Origin: a virus
Strand: one strand, 5' to 3'
DNA length: 64,000 nucleotides
IMG/VR virus record: IMGVR_UViG_3300037264_004923
Coordinates: 1 to 64,000 of that record
Both the position numbers and the translations under genes were made by a program. The notes under the pieces were generated by a model, which saw nothing but the letters and a program-made list of their open reading frames with translations, did no database searches and was not told where the DNA came from. Positions 5,987 to 40,521 of this stretch are shown here, one piece after another. The stretch's first letter is position 1; every line of letters begins with the position of its first letter.

Positions 5987-6273
5987 GCGCTCTTAGCTCA
6001 ATTGGCAGAGCAGCGGGCTTCAAATAGGAGCCCTTATAGGGAAACCCATAAGGTGAATCCGGTCAAATTCGGGGAACCCCTACAGGAGGCGTCCTAAGGC
6101 AACCCCGAGCCAAGCCCAGACATGGGAAGGTGTAGAGACTTGACGGCCGGGACCTAAAGGCGAAAGCCCATGGTCGTGAGAAAGTCCAGACCAGCAAGCC
6201 GTACAGGTGGCTTGGGAAACCAAGTGCTGGTAAGTTAACCCGTCGGTTGAAGGTTCGACTCCTTCAGGGCGCA
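5987..6273 (+). tRNA. tRNA-Lys(TTT) interrupted by a group I intron
   Basis: 5' exon 5987-6020 (GCGCTCT...GCGGG CT T) and 3' exon 6235-6273 (TT AA CCCGT...AGGGCGC A) join into a canonical cloverleaf with anticodon TTT and A73. Confidence 0.88.
6021..6234 (+). ncRNA. Self-splicing group I intron (IC3-like, 214 nt, no ORF)
   Basis: P1 GGGCTT/GAGCCC with U.G at the splice site; core motifs CAAATTCGGGGAA, GGCAACCCCGAGCCAAGC, AAGGTGTAGAGACT, AAAGTCCAG; terminal G. Confidence 0.92.
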
Positions 6274-33092: not shown

Positions 33093-33714
33093 ACCAACTA
33101 TGACCAGAAAATGCAGGCGCGGCAAGCACCTAATGACGGAGGAGAATACGTACCACTACGTTTATCCTTCTGGAAGAGAGGTGTTTCAATGCAGAGCTTG
33201 CCGCATGACTAGATCTGACGAGTGGTCAAAGAACAACCCAGAGAAGAAGAAGAAGAGCGACAAAAACTGGGCGGGTAATAACCCCCTAAAGAAACAGGTG
33301 AATCGGGTGCGCTGGGCAAAAGACAACCCAGGCAAGACGAAGACCAGTAGGTATGCTTGGGATCTACGCAACCCAGAAAAGAGAGCGGGGGCTAGATCTT
33401 CTTGGGAAGTCCGTAACCCGGAATACTCACGAATCAAGCAACATCGGCGTCGAGCTCGAAAGCGAAACCAGATGGGTGCGTGGCCGATGCCAGAGGTTGA
33501 GGCTATCAGGTTACTGTGGGATGAGCAATCAGGCAAGTGTGCTTACTGTAGCGAGACTTTGGGTTCTGCTTATCATGTGGACCACAAAAACCCGTTAGCA
33601 CGGGGCGGACTACACGGGTACGAAAACATCTGCCTCGCTTGCCCAAGATGTAACTGGGAAAAAGGACTTATGACAGATCAGGAATACCAAAGCAGCAGGA
33701 GTACCTCGAGATGA
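33082..33714 (+). CDS. HNH endonuclease
   Basis: CAYC..HVDHKNPLARGG.H...NICLAC.RCN.EK; N-terminal W..NPEK repeats. Confidence 0.92.
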   Translation: MNSKPTMTRKCRRGKHLMTEENTYHYVYPSGREVFQCRACRMTRSDEWSKNNPEKKKKSDKNWAGNNPLKKQVNRVRWAKDNPGKTKTSRYAWDLRNPEKRAGARSSWEVRNPEYSRIKQHRRRARKRNQMGAWPMPEVEAIRLLWDEQSGKCAYCSETLGSAYHVDHKNPLARGGLHGYENICLACPRCNWEKGLMTDQEYQSSRSTSR

Positions 33715-34541
33715 GTAGCAGCGATATGTCCTACCTGAAGGAGCACCTGAAAGGGCCCATCCTGAAGATCACGGACCCCAGAGAGCACAGCACAGAGGAC
33801 ATTCTAAAGTCCTACTTCAGAGAGATACTCGTCATCGCCCGGAAGTATACTCGCCCATCCGTGGAATTCGAGGACTTGGTGGTCGAGGGGCTCATGGGTC
33901 TTTTGGATGCCATCAAGCGCTGGGACCCGATAAAGGCCGGTACCAATCTTCGCTCCTTCCACAACTTGGCCATCGTTCGCATCAAGAGCAACATGTTCGA
34001 CTATTTCCTAGCGAACAACACACTCTATACCGTCCCGAACTACATGGGGCGCGCCATGTCTTTGATCGAACAGATCAAGAATCTGGTGGCTGGATACGAG
34101 TATCCAGGGAATGCACAAGAAGTTCTTCTGAACTACGAGCACGAAGGATTCGAGAAGCACGCTCCAGCCGATTACGTACGCAAGGTGCGGACTCTGAAGG
34201 AGAAGTTCCTCAATCTCGCGAAGGGATTCGACAAGTCTTACGAGGAGATGATTCGAGGCGTCCTCAAGATCCAAGAAAACATCGAGAGCTTCGAGCAGGG
34301 AGAGGAGGAATTCATGTCCTCTCCTGAAGAAATCGCAGGTAAGAGGGAGTATCTGGATAAGATCTTGAGCGTTCTGAAACCTAATGCTCGGGACGTGATC
34401 ATCTCCCTACTCGAGGGGGAGACTCTGGAGAAAGCGGGGGAAAAGCAGGGCTTCACCCGCGAACGGGCACGGCAGATCCAGAAAGAAACTCTGGAGTTCC
34501 TGCAAAAGACCCGGATGTACCGAGATGCCCTCGATGAATAG
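33711..34541 (+). CDS. Sigma70-family RNA polymerase sigma factor
   Basis: Region 2 IARKY..FEDLVVEGLMGLLDAIKRWDP; region 4 TLEKAG...GFTRERARQI. Confidence 0.92.
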   Translation: MSSSDMSYLKEHLKGPILKITDPREHSTEDILKSYFREILVIARKYTRPSVEFEDLVVEGLMGLLDAIKRWDPIKAGTNLRSFHNLAIVRIKSNMFDYFLANNTLYTVPNYMGRAMSLIEQIKNLVAGYEYPGNAQEVLLNYEHEGFEKHAPADYVRKVRTLKEKFLNLAKGFDKSYEEMIRGVLKIQENIESFEQGEEEFMSSPEEIAGKREYLDKILSVLKPNARDVIISLLEGETLEKAGEKQGFTRERARQIQKETLEFLQKTRMYRDALDE

Positions 34542-34591: not shown

Positions 34592-36058
34592 ATGAAGCAA
34601 CTGAAGGCCCTTCGGGAGCTGGAACAGCAGCTCGGGGCGGAAGTGTTTCTCGCAGGCGGCGGCGTGCGCGATCTACTGCGAGGACAAGAACCAAACGACA
34701 TTGATGTAGTTGTACGGAATGTCGTACCAGCAGACTTTGAGGGATTTCTTCGGGAGAGAGGAGATCTCGCACTAGTTGGTAAATCGTTTGGCGTGTATAT
34801 CTTCCGTCCGAAGTTCAGCAAGACGTCGGTGGAAATCGCTTTCCCTCGAACCGAGGTGAGCACGGGAACGGGACATCGAGAGTTTTCCGTTCATACCGAC
34901 CCTATGATCTCTTTGGAGGAGGACTCCAAGCGTAGGGACTTTACTCTGAACGCCATGTACCTGCCTTTGTCGGCAATCCCAGAAGATGGTTTCGAAATCG
35001 ACGGCCGGGCGGTCATCGATTTTCACGGCGGACTGGAACATCTCCACCGGCGGCTGATCGTGGCCGTAGGTCGTCCAGAAGATCGGATTCAGGAAGACCC
35101 CCTGCGTATGCTTCGAGGCATAGTGCTAGTCGCGCGGACAGGGTACCGCTTGGATGGCAACACCTTCGGCGCCATCAAGCAATATGCCGATCTGATCCGT
35201 TCAGTCGCAGCAGAACGAGTGCGTGACGAGTTCGTGAAGCTCATGGAATCCGAGAAACCTTCCAGAGGCTTCAAGACCATGGCGCGCACTGGACTTCTGG
35301 ACTACATTCTTCCTGAGCTGTCAGCCTGTATTGGCTGCGGGCAGAACCCGAAGTATCATTCCTATCCGGTGTTCGAGCACCTAATTTACGCCACGGACGC
35401 GGCGTGTTCAATCACCCAACGATTGGATGTTCGCTTCGGCGCCCTCTGTCATGATCTGGGGAAGGCCCCGACACGTCAGGTGCGCCCTGGAGGGAATGGA
35501 CCAGACGACGTATCGTTCCACAACCACGAGATTGTATCGACCAAGCTCACCTACGCCTTCATGAAGCGTATGAAATTCCCCAAGGATTTCATCGAGGGTG
35601 TGGTTCAGCTGGTGCGATACCACCAATACAAGTACGATCGGGCGTGGACGGATAAGGCGGTTCGTCGCTTCATCCGCAATGCCTCGATTACCAAGGAGTA
35701 CTTGGAAAATCTGGACAGCCATCCCCAGTTCTTGGTCCGTCAGGCGGACCGCATGGGGAACGAGCTGAAGGCGCACCTACCCGTCACCTCGAAGCAGAAA
35801 GATTTCCAAGCGCGGATCGTCGAGATCTACAACTCTTCCTCAGCGCACAGCCTTCACGACCTCAAAGTGAATGGTGAAGATCTGAAGAAAGAACTGAAGT
35901 TGTCCCCTGGTCCCACCATCGGCAAGGTTGTTCGCTTCCTTTTCGAAGTGGTGGAAGAAACTCCAGAGGTCAACAATCGAGAGGACTTGCTCAAGATCGC
36001 ACGCAAGTTCTTGGAGGAGAATCCAAATGAAAGTGATCACACTGCTGGGGAGGTTTGA
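34592..36058 (+). CDS. cca: Class II tRNA nucleotidyltransferase (CCA-adding) with HD domain
   Basis: AGGGVRD..DID, RRDFTLNA, EDPLRMLR, ERVRDE, HDLGK. Confidence 0.9.
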   Translation: MKQLKALRELEQQLGAEVFLAGGGVRDLLRGQEPNDIDVVVRNVVPADFEGFLRERGDLALVGKSFGVYIFRPKFSKTSVEIAFPRTEVSTGTGHREFSVHTDPMISLEEDSKRRDFTLNAMYLPLSAIPEDGFEIDGRAVIDFHGGLEHLHRRLIVAVGRPEDRIQEDPLRMLRGIVLVARTGYRLDGNTFGAIKQYADLIRSVAAERVRDEFVKLMESEKPSRGFKTMARTGLLDYILPELSACIGCGQNPKYHSYPVFEHLIYATDAACSITQRLDVRFGALCHDLGKAPTRQVRPGGNGPDDVSFHNHEIVSTKLTYAFMKRMKFPKDFIEGVVQLVRYHQYKYDRAWTDKAVRRFIRNASITKEYLENLDSHPQFLVRQADRMGNELKAHLPVTSKQKDFQARIVEIYNSSSAHSLHDLKVNGEDLKKELKLSPGPTIGKVVRFLFEVVEETPEVNNREDLLKIARKFLEENPNESDHTAGEV

Positions 36059-36064
36059 AACAAA

Positions 36065-36406
36065 ATGAATGTGATAACTCTAACTCCCAAGGCTGTAGAA
36101 GCAGCCACAAGATGCCTGGCGAAGGAAAGGGAAAAGAACCCCGAAGCTAACCAAGCAGGTTTAGGGATCTCTGTCATAGGCGGCGGTTGCTCTGGCAAAT
36201 CATACTCCCTGTCGTTCAGGAACAGGCGCGAAGACGATACCCCACAAGAGTATGTGGGCGGCTTATTCATCTTCATAGATCCAAAATCCGCCGAAATCCT
36301 GAAAGGCGCTACTCTCGAATTCCACGATGGTCTCGAGAAGTCAGGCTTCGAAGTTATCAATCCACAAGCAGAGTCCACATGTGGTTGTGGAAAGAGTTTT
36401 TGCTGA
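36065..36406 (+). CDS. iscA: A-type Fe-S carrier (IscA/SufA/HesB)
   Basis: GGGCSG and C-terminal NP...TCGCGKSF. Confidence 0.95.
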   Translation: MNVITLTPKAVEAATRCLAKEREKNPEANQAGLGISVIGGGCSGKSYSLSFRNRREDDTPQEYVGGLFIFIDPKSAEILKGATLEFHDGLEKSGFEVINPQAESTCGCGKSFC

Positions 36407-37008
36407 TCAGAGAAGACGAGATCAGTATTCGTGTTTAGGTAGTGCCAAACAATGATTAGGTTCGGGAACGACACTCCCGCGCCACCTAACAGAAAAGCTT
36501 GAACAGAAGTACTGTTCAGGCTTTTCGCTTTTCAGGGTCCAAACCTGAAAGCATGAGCCACATTCAAGCCCCTCCTCGAATGTATAACAGGGCTCGGGAT
36601 AGAAAGATAGCTCGACCCAGCATAATCTCATAGAGATGCTGCGCTGGTAAGTCTTGTAGCTGTTGAATACATCCCCTTGCTCCGGCACGCGAGTGTCAAA
36701 CTTGAGGCTCCCCCCAAGCTTGTATTCTCTGAAGCTTCGCCTAACGGGAAGCAGATTGAAAAAGGATGCGGCAGCTACCGAAGGGCTGCTGGAGGAGATG
36801 GCCAAGTCCGGCTTCAATCGCAGATGAGGGAAACAAGCTCAACATAAGGGGTTATGAAGCGCTCACCGGGGCAGCCGTTGAAGATCCTACACAGGTCTTC
36901 CATAACCTCTCAGCGATGCTAACTCTGCATGGCGGCGAAGACCGCCTGCTGTGTTAGAAATCGCATTTCGCTCCCCGTGGGTTAGTTTATGTCCGGCTTA
37001 AAACACAC

Positions 37009-37112
37009 TGGGATTCATCAGCTTCTGAGCGCCGAAGGGATAGGCAGTTCTTCCACCATGAGGAACACAACTCCAAAGTCCTGTCCCTGTTCTCAGCAGC
37101 TGTTCGATCCTC
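37009..37112 (+). ncRNA. Long imperfect hairpin, candidate small ncRNA
   Basis: Nested pairs GGAT/ATCC, CAGCT/AGCTG, CTGAG/CTCAG, AGGGATAGG/CCTGTCCCT, GTTCTT/AGGAAC. Confidence 0.45.
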
Positions 37113-37126
37113 TTAGCACGACTGAT

Positions 37127-37240
37127 GGACGGGGTGAAATCCGGCTCATTCGACACAAGTAGGGTAGTCCTTCTTGGGCGGGCCCGAAAATCGCGACAAG
37201 AAAAGCAGTGGAAGCAGGTTCGAATCCTGCCCCACCACCA
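37127..37240 (+). ncRNA. tRNA/tmRNA-like element without a canonical anticodon arm
   Basis: T arm GCAGG-TTCGAAT-CCTGC and ACCA 3' end; 5' GGACGGGG can pair imperfectly with CCCCACC; TGAAA..ATTCGAC resembles a tmRNA 5' end. Confidence 0.55.
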
Positions 37241-37329
37241 GTTTCAAGAATTATCGGGATGCCCCTGCCCGTTAATACACCATAACTATACTGGATGAGA
37301 AAGGTTCTATGAACCAAGTATCGGAACTA

Positions 37330-37955
37330 TGGGACATGCTGTTTTAGACATGGGGTACTTAAAGATGCTTGAAATGCCTCGCGATTAGTGAGGGATCGCC
37401 ACAATAAGCACCTATACTAAAAGGTGTGGTCGGTAGCGAAAGGAGTTTTCTGCCCAAACGTAGAAACACATTGCATCATTTCCAGATGGGAGATCACTGA
37501 ATCCAGCCAACTGCGGACGTATCCGTAGTTTAAGAACTGGAGAGTTTCCTACCCTTGGCTCAGAGGTCGTACTTGTTCCCTGTATCAGTGGGAACGGCTT
37601 GCCGTTAACAACTGGGGCTGGGGGCAGGGTTGTATTATGACCAACCAACTCACATTATTGATTCCTAGATGATAGGTTGGAGATTTGTATATCCAAGTAT
37701 AACCGGCCTGTAAGATAAAATAAGGCACGGGTGTTAAGCTCTTGCGTAGGGTAAACTACATCATAGCGTTGAAGCGATGACTGATGTGGCTGAAACAAGA
37801 GACAAAGCTGCCGTTAGCCGAAATCTAGCGACGCGGAATAAAACCCGCGTATTGGGGAACCTTGAGTAAGGGGCTCGTGATAAAGACACCGGTTGTCCAC
37901 CCCCGCTGCGAACGCTATGTAAAGTAAACGTTTGGGAAAGAGACTTCGCTTTCCC
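37330..37955 (+). ncRNA. Candidate large structured non-coding RNA (about 600 nt)
   Basis: No credible ORF; many hairpins plus long-range pairing of 37435-37461 with 37928-37950. Confidence 0.6.
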
Positions 37956-38028
37956 TTGTTAATCACCAGAAATTTACCAGAGTAGTAGAGGCTCTGGGGA
38001 TTTGATATAGTATTCAAGGAGATATGAA

Positions 38029-38892
38029 ATGTTGTATGTGTTGTACAAGAACTCGGGAGTTCACTCTGGAAGAGCCCTCCGCCGGATGCTGGAAGGTTTG
38101 TACGAAGAAAAGGTTCTCGGGGGCTATCCCAAGAAATTTTCCCTGATGCAGAAACAGGGTGTCAAACCCAAGGTCGTTGTGAATCTCGGGGTAACTGACG
38201 ACGATCTGAAGTTCACCGGAAGAGTTCTGAACACACAGAACATGGTACGCTTGGCCTCGAACAAGAGGAAGGCGCGACAGATCTTCGAGGAAGCAAACGT
38301 TCCCGCACCCAAGCTCTTCACCTCCGTGAACGCCATCACGGAGGCAGATCTACCCTTGGTGGGGAGAACTTCCTATCACCAGAAGGGTGAAGGTTTTTGG
38401 TTCTGCAAGACCATGAAGGATGTACGAGCGGCTGTGTCCGCAGGCGCTACGCACTTCCTAGAGTTCGTTCCCAGCACGCGTGAGTATCGTGTGCATACCT
38501 TTATCAGCGGCAAGCATCTGGATACTCCCGCCGATAAGAGAACAGCCGACAGCTACGTTTCCACCAAGATCTCCGAGAAGGTCTGGCAGGGAGAAGGTTC
38601 TCCGAATCCGGAAGAGCCGCAGAAAAACCATGAGTTCGGCTGGTCTTTCCTCGGGCCCCAGGATCGCAGGGCAGACGAGTTGGATGTGGTACGATATGCT
38701 GCAAAGCAAGCCATTGCTGCTCTGGGAATAGACTTCGGGGCAGTCGACGTGATGTACCGCATCAGGACGAAATGCCCGTATGTTCTGGAAGTAAATTCCA
38801 CCCCAAGTATGTCGGATGACGCCGCAAATACCTGCGAGGTGTACGCGAAGCGAATCCTGAAGACCATCGGCGGAAAAGGAGAAGAGGACTAA
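38029..38892 (+). CDS. ATP-grasp ligase (RimK/phiEco32-like)
   Basis: ASNK, H..GEGFW, EYRVH, KNHEFGW.F, LGIDFGAVDV, VLEVNSTP. Confidence 0.88.
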   Translation: MLYVLYKNSGVHSGRALRRMLEGLYEEKVLGGYPKKFSLMQKQGVKPKVVVNLGVTDDDLKFTGRVLNTQNMVRLASNKRKARQIFEEANVPAPKLFTSVNAITEADLPLVGRTSYHQKGEGFWFCKTMKDVRAAVSAGATHFLEFVPSTREYRVHTFISGKHLDTPADKRTADSYVSTKISEKVWQGEGSPNPEEPQKNHEFGWSFLGPQDRRADELDVVRYAAKQAIAALGIDFGAVDVMYRIRTKCPYVLEVNSTPSMSDDAANTCEVYAKRILKTIGGKGEED

Positions 38893-40073
38893 TGCCAACC
38901 TATTCTTCCAGTACCAGCAACTTCTCCGTTAGTTATCTCACCACCAGTGAAAACAGTGGATGGGATAACAGCGCCACGATCGCGACGGGAGCGACGATCG
39001 CGACGGGAGCGAGTATCCACCTACGCGAGTACGGTACCGCCAGTCACCACGACTGGCTGGCGGCGACTCTTCCTCCATGTCATTCGCAGGCACCCAACAA
39101 GAAGAAACCCGCAGCGATACCGGCAGCCTTGGCCAAAGAAGGTATCCACTTGGGTTCTGAATTGCTGGTGTTCTATGAGAGAAAGCGCATCCTTGGAAAC
39201 TACAAAGAGGGTCACCACCACCGGGGAGAAACTCACTATCAGAATGTCCAAGACTTGCTCGCTAGGTTCTTTATCAACATACATTACAGCGAGGACTCCG
39301 TTTCCAACTGGAGGGACTGGTGTATTGGAATATCGAGCATCGTCCGTAGGAACAACCTAGGACAGAGCGCCGGCATGAATATGCACCTACCTATGTTTGA
39401 TTACGACGGAAAGAACATCAAAAGCCTCCTTCGTAAGGAGGTGCGTCTTCTGCAGCAGCTATGGGGACTTGGCCCCGCCACCTTATTCCAGACCAAGAGG
39501 GGATTTCACATTTATTTCATGACAGATGTGGTTCCTTGGGATGTATACCGCGAGATGCTCGACAAGGTAAATTGCTGTAAAGGATTCAAGCGTTGCTCGT
39601 TGGATGTCGGCTACGGAGTCCTGCGCGTAAGCGCCAAGTACTCCACCTTCGACATCAAGATGGACAGCATCATACTGCCGGAAACTACGAAGCCTTTGCC
39701 TGCCAGAAAGATCCGCAAGGCGCATGTGATAGAGGCTTTGATCGCCCTAGGAGAAAAGAGTGGCACTCATTTCGCTTCGTTGTATCCGGAGTGGGCACAT
39801 TATAAGGAAGACGAAACCCCGTGGAAGCCCTCCACCAAGAGCATGCGTACGGCAGGCAAGCCTAATAAGATAGAGGGCGCCCCGTATAAGATAGAGGGCG
39901 CCCTGCATCTGCCCCTTGAAGGCGAGGTCGGTGAGCAGCAGGGGGCCATCGAGAACGGACCAAGGCCTAAACTACTTTTGAAGCCCAAGACGGCGACGGC
40001 AGGACAGGCGCAGGCGCCCGCTCCGGCAAACGCAAGCCTCTTCTCCACTACTTCGGAAAATATTGGACATTGA
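38892..40073 (+). CDS. Hypothetical protein with AEP primase-like motifs
   Basis: HLPMFDYDG (DxD) and FQTKRGFHIYF. Confidence 0.5.
   Translation: MPTYSSSTSNFSVSYLTTSENSGWDNSATIATGATIATGASIHLREYGTASHHDWLAATLPPCHSQAPNKKKPAAIPAALAKEGIHLGSELLVFYERKRILGNYKEGHHHRGETHYQNVQDLLARFFINIHYSEDSVSNWRDWCIGISSIVRRNNLGQSAGMNMHLPMFDYDGKNIKSLLRKEVRLLQQLWGLGPATLFQTKRGFHIYFMTDVVPWDVYREMLDKVNCCKGFKRCSLDVGYGVLRVSAKYSTFDIKMDSIILPETTKPLPARKIRKAHVIEALIALGEKSGTHFASLYPEWAHYKEDETPWKPSTKSMRTAGKPNKIEGAPYKIEGALHLPLEGEVGEQQGAIENGPRPKLLLKPKTATAGQAQAPAPANASLFSTTSENIGH
38976..39011 (+). repeat. In-frame 18-nt tandem duplication
   Basis: ACGATCGCGACGGGAGCG x2 (TIATGA). Confidence 0.9.
39865..39903 (+). repeat. In-frame duplication with 21-nt period
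   Basis: ATAAGATAGAGGGCGCCC twice (KIEGA). Confidence 0.85.
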
Positions 40074-40200: not shown

Positions 40201-40521
40201 ATGTCCCGAAATTCCAAGTACGAGCAAGTGGTAGTAGATGTGCTAACCGACCTAGGCGGCGGGCCCGTGTCCTGCAAGGTTCTGATCGAGGCGATCGTCT
40301 CGAAAGGACTACTCGAGGATCGAAAGTACCTCTATCACAACGTTCTAAACAGAGTTCGACGCTCGACGACGTTTGACACCTCCGTTCGCGGTATGGTGTC
40401 TCTGTCCCCACAGCCTGTAATAGAAGCTCTCGCAGCAGCAGTTCCAGTGGTGCCGCCTGTTCTTCCCGCCGATGAAAATTGGGCGGCGGAACCAGCAGTC
40501 GCCAAAAACTCCGGGTGGTAA
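40201..40521 (+). CDS. Small winged-helix (HARE-HTH-like) protein
   Basis: AAGGAG RBS; helical N-domain ending F....RG.VSL. Confidence 0.5.
   Translation: MSRNSKYEQVVVDVLTDLGGGPVSCKVLIEAIVSKGLLEDRKYLYHNVLNRVRRSTTFDTSVRGMVSLSPQPVIEALAAAVPVVPPVLPADENWAAEPAVAKNSGW

Follow-up and report, generated by a model that had tools for sequence, protein, structure and literature searches.

The gene-free DNA that precedes a gene for a RimK-like ligase in the 64,000-nucleotide window analysed here ends with a large RNA, which we call RNA-B. When the stretch is compared among relatives, RNA-B emerges as a previously uncatalogued, elaborately folded RNA family of giant phages. The comparison establishes the RNA itself, the strand from which it is read, its fold, its conservation, its copy number and its fixed neighbours. 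No Rfam 15 family includes RNA-B, which belongs to a kind that is loosely defined, that of the large ornate phage RNAs found beside tRNA-type elements, to which it brings an unrelated fold, an unusually built tRNA-like companion and a fixed protein-gene neighbour. With its tail, it occupies positions 37447-37970 of the + strand, the conserved core starting at about 37447 and the tail reaching about 37970, and the core measures about 500 nt here and from about 430 to 620 nt among relatives.

The window comprises the initial 64 kb of an IMG/VR virus record of 101.8 kb, whose completeness is estimated at 34%. Two relatives, at 296 and 298 kb, are complete genomes, so that the source is a giant phage. 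It carries 10 tRNA genes in the window and, inside the tRNA cluster, a group I intron that Rfam recognises above threshold (6010-6203, 54.2 bits). The genes that matter for what follows all lie on the + strand. Before the gene-free stretch are found those of a sigma-70-like factor (33711-34541), a CCA-adding enzyme (34592-36058) and a HesB/IscA-like protein (36065-36406); 1.62 kb without a credible open reading frame then extend from 36407 to 38028. The next gene encodes the RimK-like ATP-grasp ligase (38029-38892, 287 aa; PHROG 2599, E = 3e-22), with a ribosome-binding site AAGGAG at 38016-21, and comparison of this protein with Pfam and PDB gave weak RimK/TTL matches. It is followed by p393, a primase-polymerase-like protein of 393 aa (38892-40073) that has the DxD and GxH motifs and the corresponding fold, and by p106, a protein of 106 aa (40201-40521). 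The predicted core of p393 covers residues 86-315 or so, with pLDDT values mostly between 82 and 96 and ends that are disordered in the model. As modelled, this core resembles the archaeo-eukaryotic primase-polymerase domains of HP0184, of the LigD polymerase domain, of the ASFV PrimPol and of the poxvirus D5/E5 proteins.

Folded alone, the window's copy of the stretch is no more than modestly better than its shuffles on the + strand (z = -2.0; -4.5 on the minus strand), which speaks for taking it as the remains of a protein gene or as hairpins that arose by chance; a comparative test was therefore required. In the consensus derived with RNAalifold from an alignment of 19 sequences (A3), RNA-B has 115 base pairs arranged in 20 helices. 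Standard pairs fill 88.2% of the paired cells, against 35-47% when the partners are slid by one to three columns. Changes on both sides are found at 87 of the 115 pairs, against 33-56 in the slid controls, and the covariation score is 0.504, against 0.09-0.14. None of 500 shuffles came as high as any of these observed values. Because the consensus structure came from the very alignment on which it was scored, a split test was also run: a structure obtained from 8 sequences left 75.8% of the cells paired in 8 held-out ones, the window included, and 36-50% when it was shifted. G-U cells (292) far outnumber A-C cells (65) in the alignment, which indicates that RNA-B is read from the + strand, as are the genes that flank it. 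No reading frame is conserved in the 19 homologues, and the lengths of insertions and deletions, which leave remainders of 1, 0 and 2 in 100, 56 and 54 cases, are without a three-base pattern. The longest open reading frame between 37330 and 37955 is 78 aa long and lies on the minus strand. Compensated base pairs without a coding signal are the mark of a structured non-coding RNA, and covariation, the held-out test and the missing frame and indel pattern together exclude both the decayed gene and the chance hairpins, to which we give a next to negligible probability. A sequence-only reading of the window, which had noticed a stretch devoid of credible coding capacity and proposed a large ornate RNA in its place, was thus right on both counts. 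It had placed this RNA at 37330-37955; its first 117 nt turn out to be variable linker, the core beginning at about 37447, and the conserved tail goes beyond its 3' limit, to about 37970.

The core (37447-37943) is closed by a long-range helix in two parts. In the outer one, UUCU/GAGA (37448-51/37940-43), a U-A pair is exchanged for C-G in one subgroup, and in the inner one, CCCAAACG/CGUUUGGG (37453-60/37929-36), all 8 of 8 pairs have changed on both sides. The closing duplex amounts to -10 to -24 kcal/mol in all members except the most divergent. A closure of this kind had been foreseen from the window, and of that proposal the pairing CCCAAACG/CGTTTGGG survives, while its outer AGCGAA/TTCGCT extension fares no better in the homologues than shuffled sequence. 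Within the closing helix the consensus nests further long-range helices (37485-90/37901-06, 37493-97/37877-81, 37542-49/37870-76, 37552-57/37861-65, 37559-62/37853-56 and 37564-69/37704-09), hairpins at 37502-41, 37572-629 and 37885-96, and a branched domain at 37710-37830. It is this branched domain, taken at 37700-37834, that is best conserved, with the motifs AUAACYGG, GGUGUGA, UAGCNNNGAAGCNNUGAC and GAGCURC, and it was used as the source of a covariance model, R1. The best-conserved motif of all, UAGCNNNGAAGCNNUGAC, lies within a fully compensated helix (37756-63/37782-89). Variation in length is restricted to hairpin tips and to two or three insert sites, and several junction strands are near-invariant (GAAGAA, GGGGAUCACUG, GAUAAAGG, CCCAUAC and AGUAAG). 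A simple covariation scan for pseudoknots or additional long-range pairs gave nothing convincing beyond the nested structure.

Three of the individual helices that had been picked out by eye recur in the homologues, namely TCCAG/CTGGA (37502-07/37536-41), CTCTTG/CAAGAG (37738-45/37796-803) and ACATCA/TGATGT, which is the compensated helix at 37756-63/37782-89 just described. About half of the others can form in the window sequence only and are not the pairings that the family has kept. GGTCGTA/TATGACC is such an alternative, the conserved partner of GGTCG being CGGCC at 37704-08; so is GTTCCC/GGGAAC, as TTCCC pairs with GGGGG at 37621-29; and neither AACCGG/CCGGTT nor GGTGTT/GACACC corresponds to a conserved pairing. 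CCTCGC/GTGAGG and CACCT/AGGTG in the 5' linker, as well as CCAAC/GTTGG in a variable insert, belong to stretches that cannot be aligned between homologues. CGTTAG/CTAGCG and ACGCGG/CCGCGT sit at the edge of a variable insert, where CTAGCG has a different consensus partner with weak support.

RNA-B is the last module of a conserved gene-free block of 1.5-2.2 kb, in which a terminator, a conserved stretch of about 440 nt, a tRNA-like RNA, a variable linker and RNA-B follow one another in this order, and which ends 15-110 nt before the RimK-like ATP-grasp gene. Directly after the HesB-like gene a covarying hairpin is seen, GGUAGUG/CGCCACC (36438-44/36480-86), and then comes the intrinsic terminator (36492-36530, +), with a stem at 36492-36503/36515-36526 and a T-run, which ends the operon of the CCA-adding enzyme and the HesB-like protein. 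Kept in 12 loci, where 91% of its stem is paired and 7 pairs have changes in both partners, this terminator sets the 5' limit of the block; no other conserved terminator is found inside the block or between RNA-B and the ligase gene. The conserved stretch that follows (RNA-A, 36535-36975, +) contains the invariant islands TTGCTCCGGCA, GTGCAAG, CCAAAGTAGGGG..CCCCCAAA, GCCACCAAAGGGA and GAGGGGATG. In the alignment of 12 loci it shows no conserved open reading frame, and its covariation is limited to short helices; it could represent either an additional RNA or the 5' domain of a single large one.

The tRNA-like RNA comes next (36977-37240, +), 264 nt long here and 266-420 nt in relatives. As tabulated for 16 loci, it opens at 36977 with a 5' acceptor strand GUGGG, continues with a D stem TTTA/TAAA (36986-89/36999-37002) whose loop contains GG, and has in the position of the anticodon stem five base pairs, CACTG/CAGTG (37006-10/37206-10), that enclose, in place of an anticodon loop, about 190 nt here and 180-330 nt among the loci. 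A T arm (37214-30), the 3' strand CCCAC and finally CACCA complete the molecule. All its stems covary, and the length of the acceptor is matched on both strands (GGG with CCCCAC, GGGG with CCCCCAC). The third acceptor pair is G-C rather than G-U, and the alanine rule that applies to tmRNA is therefore not respected. The CCA end is not encoded in three relatives (L002, L018 and L020), which fits the presence of a gene for a CCA-adding enzyme nearby. Neither ARAGORN nor Rfam calls this element. Between it and RNA-B, the variable linker (37241-37446, +) can be aligned within subgroups only of the 19 sequences and reaches about 500 nt in some homologues.

How widely this organization is distributed was explored by gathering the loci upstream of the ligase in scans of IMG/VR, JGI metagenomes and GTDB genomes. 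The ligase has 471 relatives in a large protein collection, and the best 120 of the 471 are all at least 57% identical to it. In every locus that reaches far enough, the order is the same, sigma factor, CCA enzyme, HesB, 1.5-2.2 kb without genes, ligase, p393 and p106, with one exception, L013, which alone has no HesB. The RNA-B profile matches all the loci that have a ligase at least 56% identical together with upstream sequence, about 22 contigs when partial ones are counted, mostly from sediment metagenomes; among the loci scanned, it gave no matches outside this set. A sequence profile built on the core has a single match in the 101.8-kb record, and R1 has one in each of the complete relatives of 296-298 kb. 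R1 also reveals, in L024, an RNA-B cut by the contig end in front of a ligase that is only 41% identical, its tail still recognisable as UUCCUGCUAACCAUCAG. Wherever a locus extends far enough, L024 included, RNA-B lies on the strand of the ligase gene and directly upstream of it. About 140 loci with a ligase at most 33% identical have neither RNA-B nor p393 nor p106. As these distant loci are devoid of all three, they have no bearing on a link between RNA-B and the ligase, and it is the module of RNA-B, ligase, p393 and p106 as a whole that is clade-specific. R1 matches L286 as well, a 26.5-kb contig (WJJK01000109.1) binned as Candidatus Altiarchaeales, which carries the sigma factor, the CCA enzyme, HesB, RNA-B, the ligase, p393 and p106. 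The contig is probably a piece of a giant phage that ended up in an archaeal bin, and consequently it is no evidence on the host. No match to 36000-38100 was found by blastn among GenBank phages. When IMG/VR was scanned with DNA motifs, one pattern gave a known relative only, and another mostly chance hits, among which nhmmer confirmed two known relatives.

No match between this family and an RNA already described was found. The 4227 models of Rfam 15 were run with cmscan on 36000-38300 at E<=10 and on 14 homologous loci at E<=1, and RNA-B was matched by none of them, GOLLD, ROOL, OLE, HEARO, RNase P, tmRNA, group I and II introns, T-box and cobalamin riboswitch included; unrelated small families at chance level were all that appeared. 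Since the group I intron model does match in the tRNA cluster of the window, the search works. Scanned alone against the 101.8-kb record, the GOLLD model (RF02032) had no match at E<=10, nor did the ROOL model (RF03087), for which the control genomes likewise gave none. Literature searches on the large RNAs of jumbo phages turned up no description of RNA-B. The sequence-only reading had suggested a scan for the known large RNAs and had envisaged either a member of a class such as ROOL and GOLLD, which occur in phages beside tRNAs, or a new class; it is the latter that these searches support.

Resemblance to known RNAs is nevertheless instructive. In GOLLD the 5' region varies while the 3' region is conserved, and the linker sometimes contains tRNAs (bioRxiv 10.1101/2024.12.08.627333). 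Like GOLLD, RNA-B is large, ornate, present in a phage (GOLLD being a phage and prophage RNA) and close to tRNA genes, with a tRNA-type element between a 5' stretch and a conserved 3' RNA. This is a resemblance in layout, not homology: RNA-B has neither the motifs nor the helix plan of GOLLD, a tRNA-like RNA of 266-420 nt takes the place of a normal tRNA, and RNA-B abuts a protein gene. A multimeric cage made of RNA alone is a further trait of GOLLD and ROOL. ROOL, of about 600 nt, has in common with RNA-B a complex fold, a phage origin and the vicinity of tRNA islands; it differs in its several pseudoknots, none of which has a counterpart detected in RNA-B by the simple covariation scan, and in having no fixed protein-gene neighbour. 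OLE RNA (RF01071) is about 600 nt long and is located directly upstream of the gene of its partner OapA, with which it is co-transcribed. RNA-B, too, is a large RNA directly upstream of a protein gene, but OLE is bacterial, from extremophilic Firmicutes, and the neighbours of RNA-B are a RimK-like ligase and a primase-polymerase-like protein. One might therefore see RNA-B as a very divergent member of one of the known families (GOLLD, ROOL, OLE, RNase P RNA, a piece of tmRNA or an intron), as its habitat and neighbourhood are those of GOLLD and ROOL and its layout is GOLLD-like. That Rfam gave no match, either in the window region (E<=10) or in the 14 loci (E<=1), and that the GOLLD and ROOL models gave none at E<=10, makes this very improbable.

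The 3' end deserves particular attention, because it is there that a switch had been imagined. In the window, a local hairpin GGGAAAG/CUUUCCC (37934-37955, +) is an alternative to the outer part of the closing helix; its overlap with the 3' strand of that helix is a few bases only. This hairpin can form in the window, as had been claimed, and many homologues can make a similar one; it is its conservation that is missing, in register and in U-run alike. The hairpin reaches -8 kcal/mol or better in 11 of the 19 homologues and is weaker than -5 kcal/mol in 7; its register shifts from one to another, and its 3' arm, CCCUC, is invariant and hence shows no covariation. It is followed by GUUAAUCA, without a U-run. 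With its tail TTGTTAATCA the window hairpin passes a loose terminator scan, and the homologues have CCCUCGUUAAUCA there, with a stem that shifts or is weak. An intrinsic terminator conserved as such, with a G+C-rich hairpin and a U-run directly behind it, is thus not what is seen. Shifting register, invariant arm, weak stems and missing U-run lead us to reject a transcription-termination switch as a feature of the family, and with it the proposal that a terminator alternates with the long-range pairing. Control of translation or of processing through the same strands is possible. Downstream, a single-stranded 3' tail is conserved (37949-37970, +; YCCCUYGUUAAUCAMCAG). Its motif TAATCAMCAR is not repeated elsewhere in the window and is not a repeated promoter-like signal; nor is the motif CAGAGTAG a repeated signal of that type. 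Members with a long spacer, and they only, have between this tail and the ribosome-binding site a hairpin CCAGAG/CUCUGG with the motif CAGAGUAG (37977-37997, + in the window) or CAGAGAAGAGGA, which is missing in those with a short spacer. The window shows no enrichment of CAGAGUAG.

What, then, could such an RNA do? The account we favour, while giving it somewhat less than an even chance, is that RNA-B would be a self-standing folded non-coding RNA released from a precursor punctuated by a tRNA-like element. Transcription of the + strand after the terminator at 36530 would yield one long gene-free transcript with RNA-B as its last module. The tRNA-like element would be excised by the RNase P of the host and a 3' nuclease, with the help of the phage's own CCA-adding enzyme, and this excision would separate the modules and set the 5' side of the RNA-B piece. 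RNA-B would then fold around the closing helix that joins both its ends and act as a scaffold or as the partner of a protein, not as a message. Because no conserved terminator separates RNA-B from the ligase gene, transcription would continue into it. The single long transcript, the cutting at the tRNA-like element, the action in trans and any partner are what we infer. We lean towards a self-standing RNA because RNA-B is like ROOL and GOLLD in size, complexity, phage origin and tRNA neighbourhood. The closing helix unites its 5' and 3' ends, and in many stable processed RNAs the two ends are joined by a helix. To this must be added the terminator found before the block with none inside, and the covarying tRNA-like element beside a gene for a CCA-adding enzyme. 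Against it stand the members with a short spacer, where the tail and the ligase's ribosome-binding site are only about a dozen bases apart. There RNA-B has to be part of the 5' leader of the ligase unless it is cut off, an arrangement that fits a cis-regulator equally well.

Indeed, RNA-B might be a giant cis-acting leader that gates translation of the operon made of the RimK-like ligase and the primase-polymerase-like protein, the chief rival of this account even though we think it rather unlikely. The closed helix would hold a purine-rich strand (GAGAGGG, or GGGAAAG in the window), leaving CCCUC free to shut the ribosome-binding site; once the helix is open, the purine strand would pair with CCCUC in the local hairpin and the site would be freed, the folding of the core setting the balance, perhaps with a bound ligand, a protein or the tRNA-like RNA. 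As in riboswitch and T-box leaders, RNA-B precedes the gene on the same strand, its closing helix has an alternative 3' pairing, a tRNA-type RNA is nearby and, in part of the family, the pyrimidine tail is complementary to the ribosome-binding site. Its position upstream of the ligase holds even for L024, where the ligase is so divergent, there is no conserved terminator on the way to the gene, and some bases are common to the closing helix and the local hairpin. In short-spacer members CCCUC is complementary to a GAGG ribosome-binding site located 20-25 nt downstream, and in the window CCUUG pairs with CAAGG, an exchange of U-A for C-G at one position. The tail pairs with the ribosome-binding site at about -6 kcal/mol in the window and where the spacer is short, and weakly in the other members. 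The exclusivity with the closing helix is real but partial, and the compensating exchange is a single one, between the window and the short-spacer group. Moreover, in L015-L019 the ribosome-binding site is AGGUGG or AGGUGA, which pairs poorly with a CCCUC that is still invariant; in 7 of 19 members the local hairpin is too weak to reach -5 kcal/mol; and in many the start codon is set apart from the tail by 60-110 nt of spacer that include an extra hairpin. Unlike a typical leader, RNA-B would be a 500-nt sensor of 20 helices, far larger than any known riboswitch and two to five times the size of any known leader of these types, with an expression platform that is not family-wide and without an Rfam match. 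Less probable still is that RNA-B should serve the ligase, p393 or p106 as RNA subunit, guide or template within a common particle. The fixed order of RNA-B and these three genes points that way, as do the DxD and GxH motifs and the archaeo-eukaryotic primase fold of p393. Large structured RNAs often adjoin the gene of their protein partner, as OLE RNA does with OapA, HEARO or omega RNA with IscB and retron RNA with the reverse transcriptase. The whole region is however syntenic in one clade, so that linkage carries little information, and we know of no primase-polymerase that uses a dedicated structured RNA. More generally, all members come from a single syntenic phage clade, and their fixed neighbours cannot therefore separate these models. 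A particle and the self-standing RNA that we favour are mutually compatible. More speculative, and to our mind a long shot, is the idea that the whole block of 1.5-2.2 kb makes up one new RNA machine, in which the 5' stretch, the giant tRNA-like RNA and RNA-B work with the ligase and the primase-polymerase-like protein. RNA-B might there read the state of the tRNA-like RNA and gate the operon in T-box fashion, or be the scaffold or template of the polymerase-like enzyme.

We know of few bacterial or phage RNAs so large and so complex, OLE, GOLLD, ROOL, HEARO, raiA, the classical ribozymes and the ribosomal RNAs, and several of the known large ornate RNAs proved to have unexpected architectures or partners. 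The RNA-B family, which offers some 20 usefully diverse sequences, a single copy in each genome and well-defined boundaries, is ready for structure probing and cryo-EM. Its context has a flavour of translation, with a tRNA cluster, a CCA-adding enzyme, a giant tRNA-like RNA and a RimK-like ligase, the RimK family being one that modifies ribosomal protein S6. Should RNA-B be a leader, no cis-regulator known in a phage would come near it in size; should it be a free RNA, it would be a further class of ornate phage RNA linked to tRNA-type elements.
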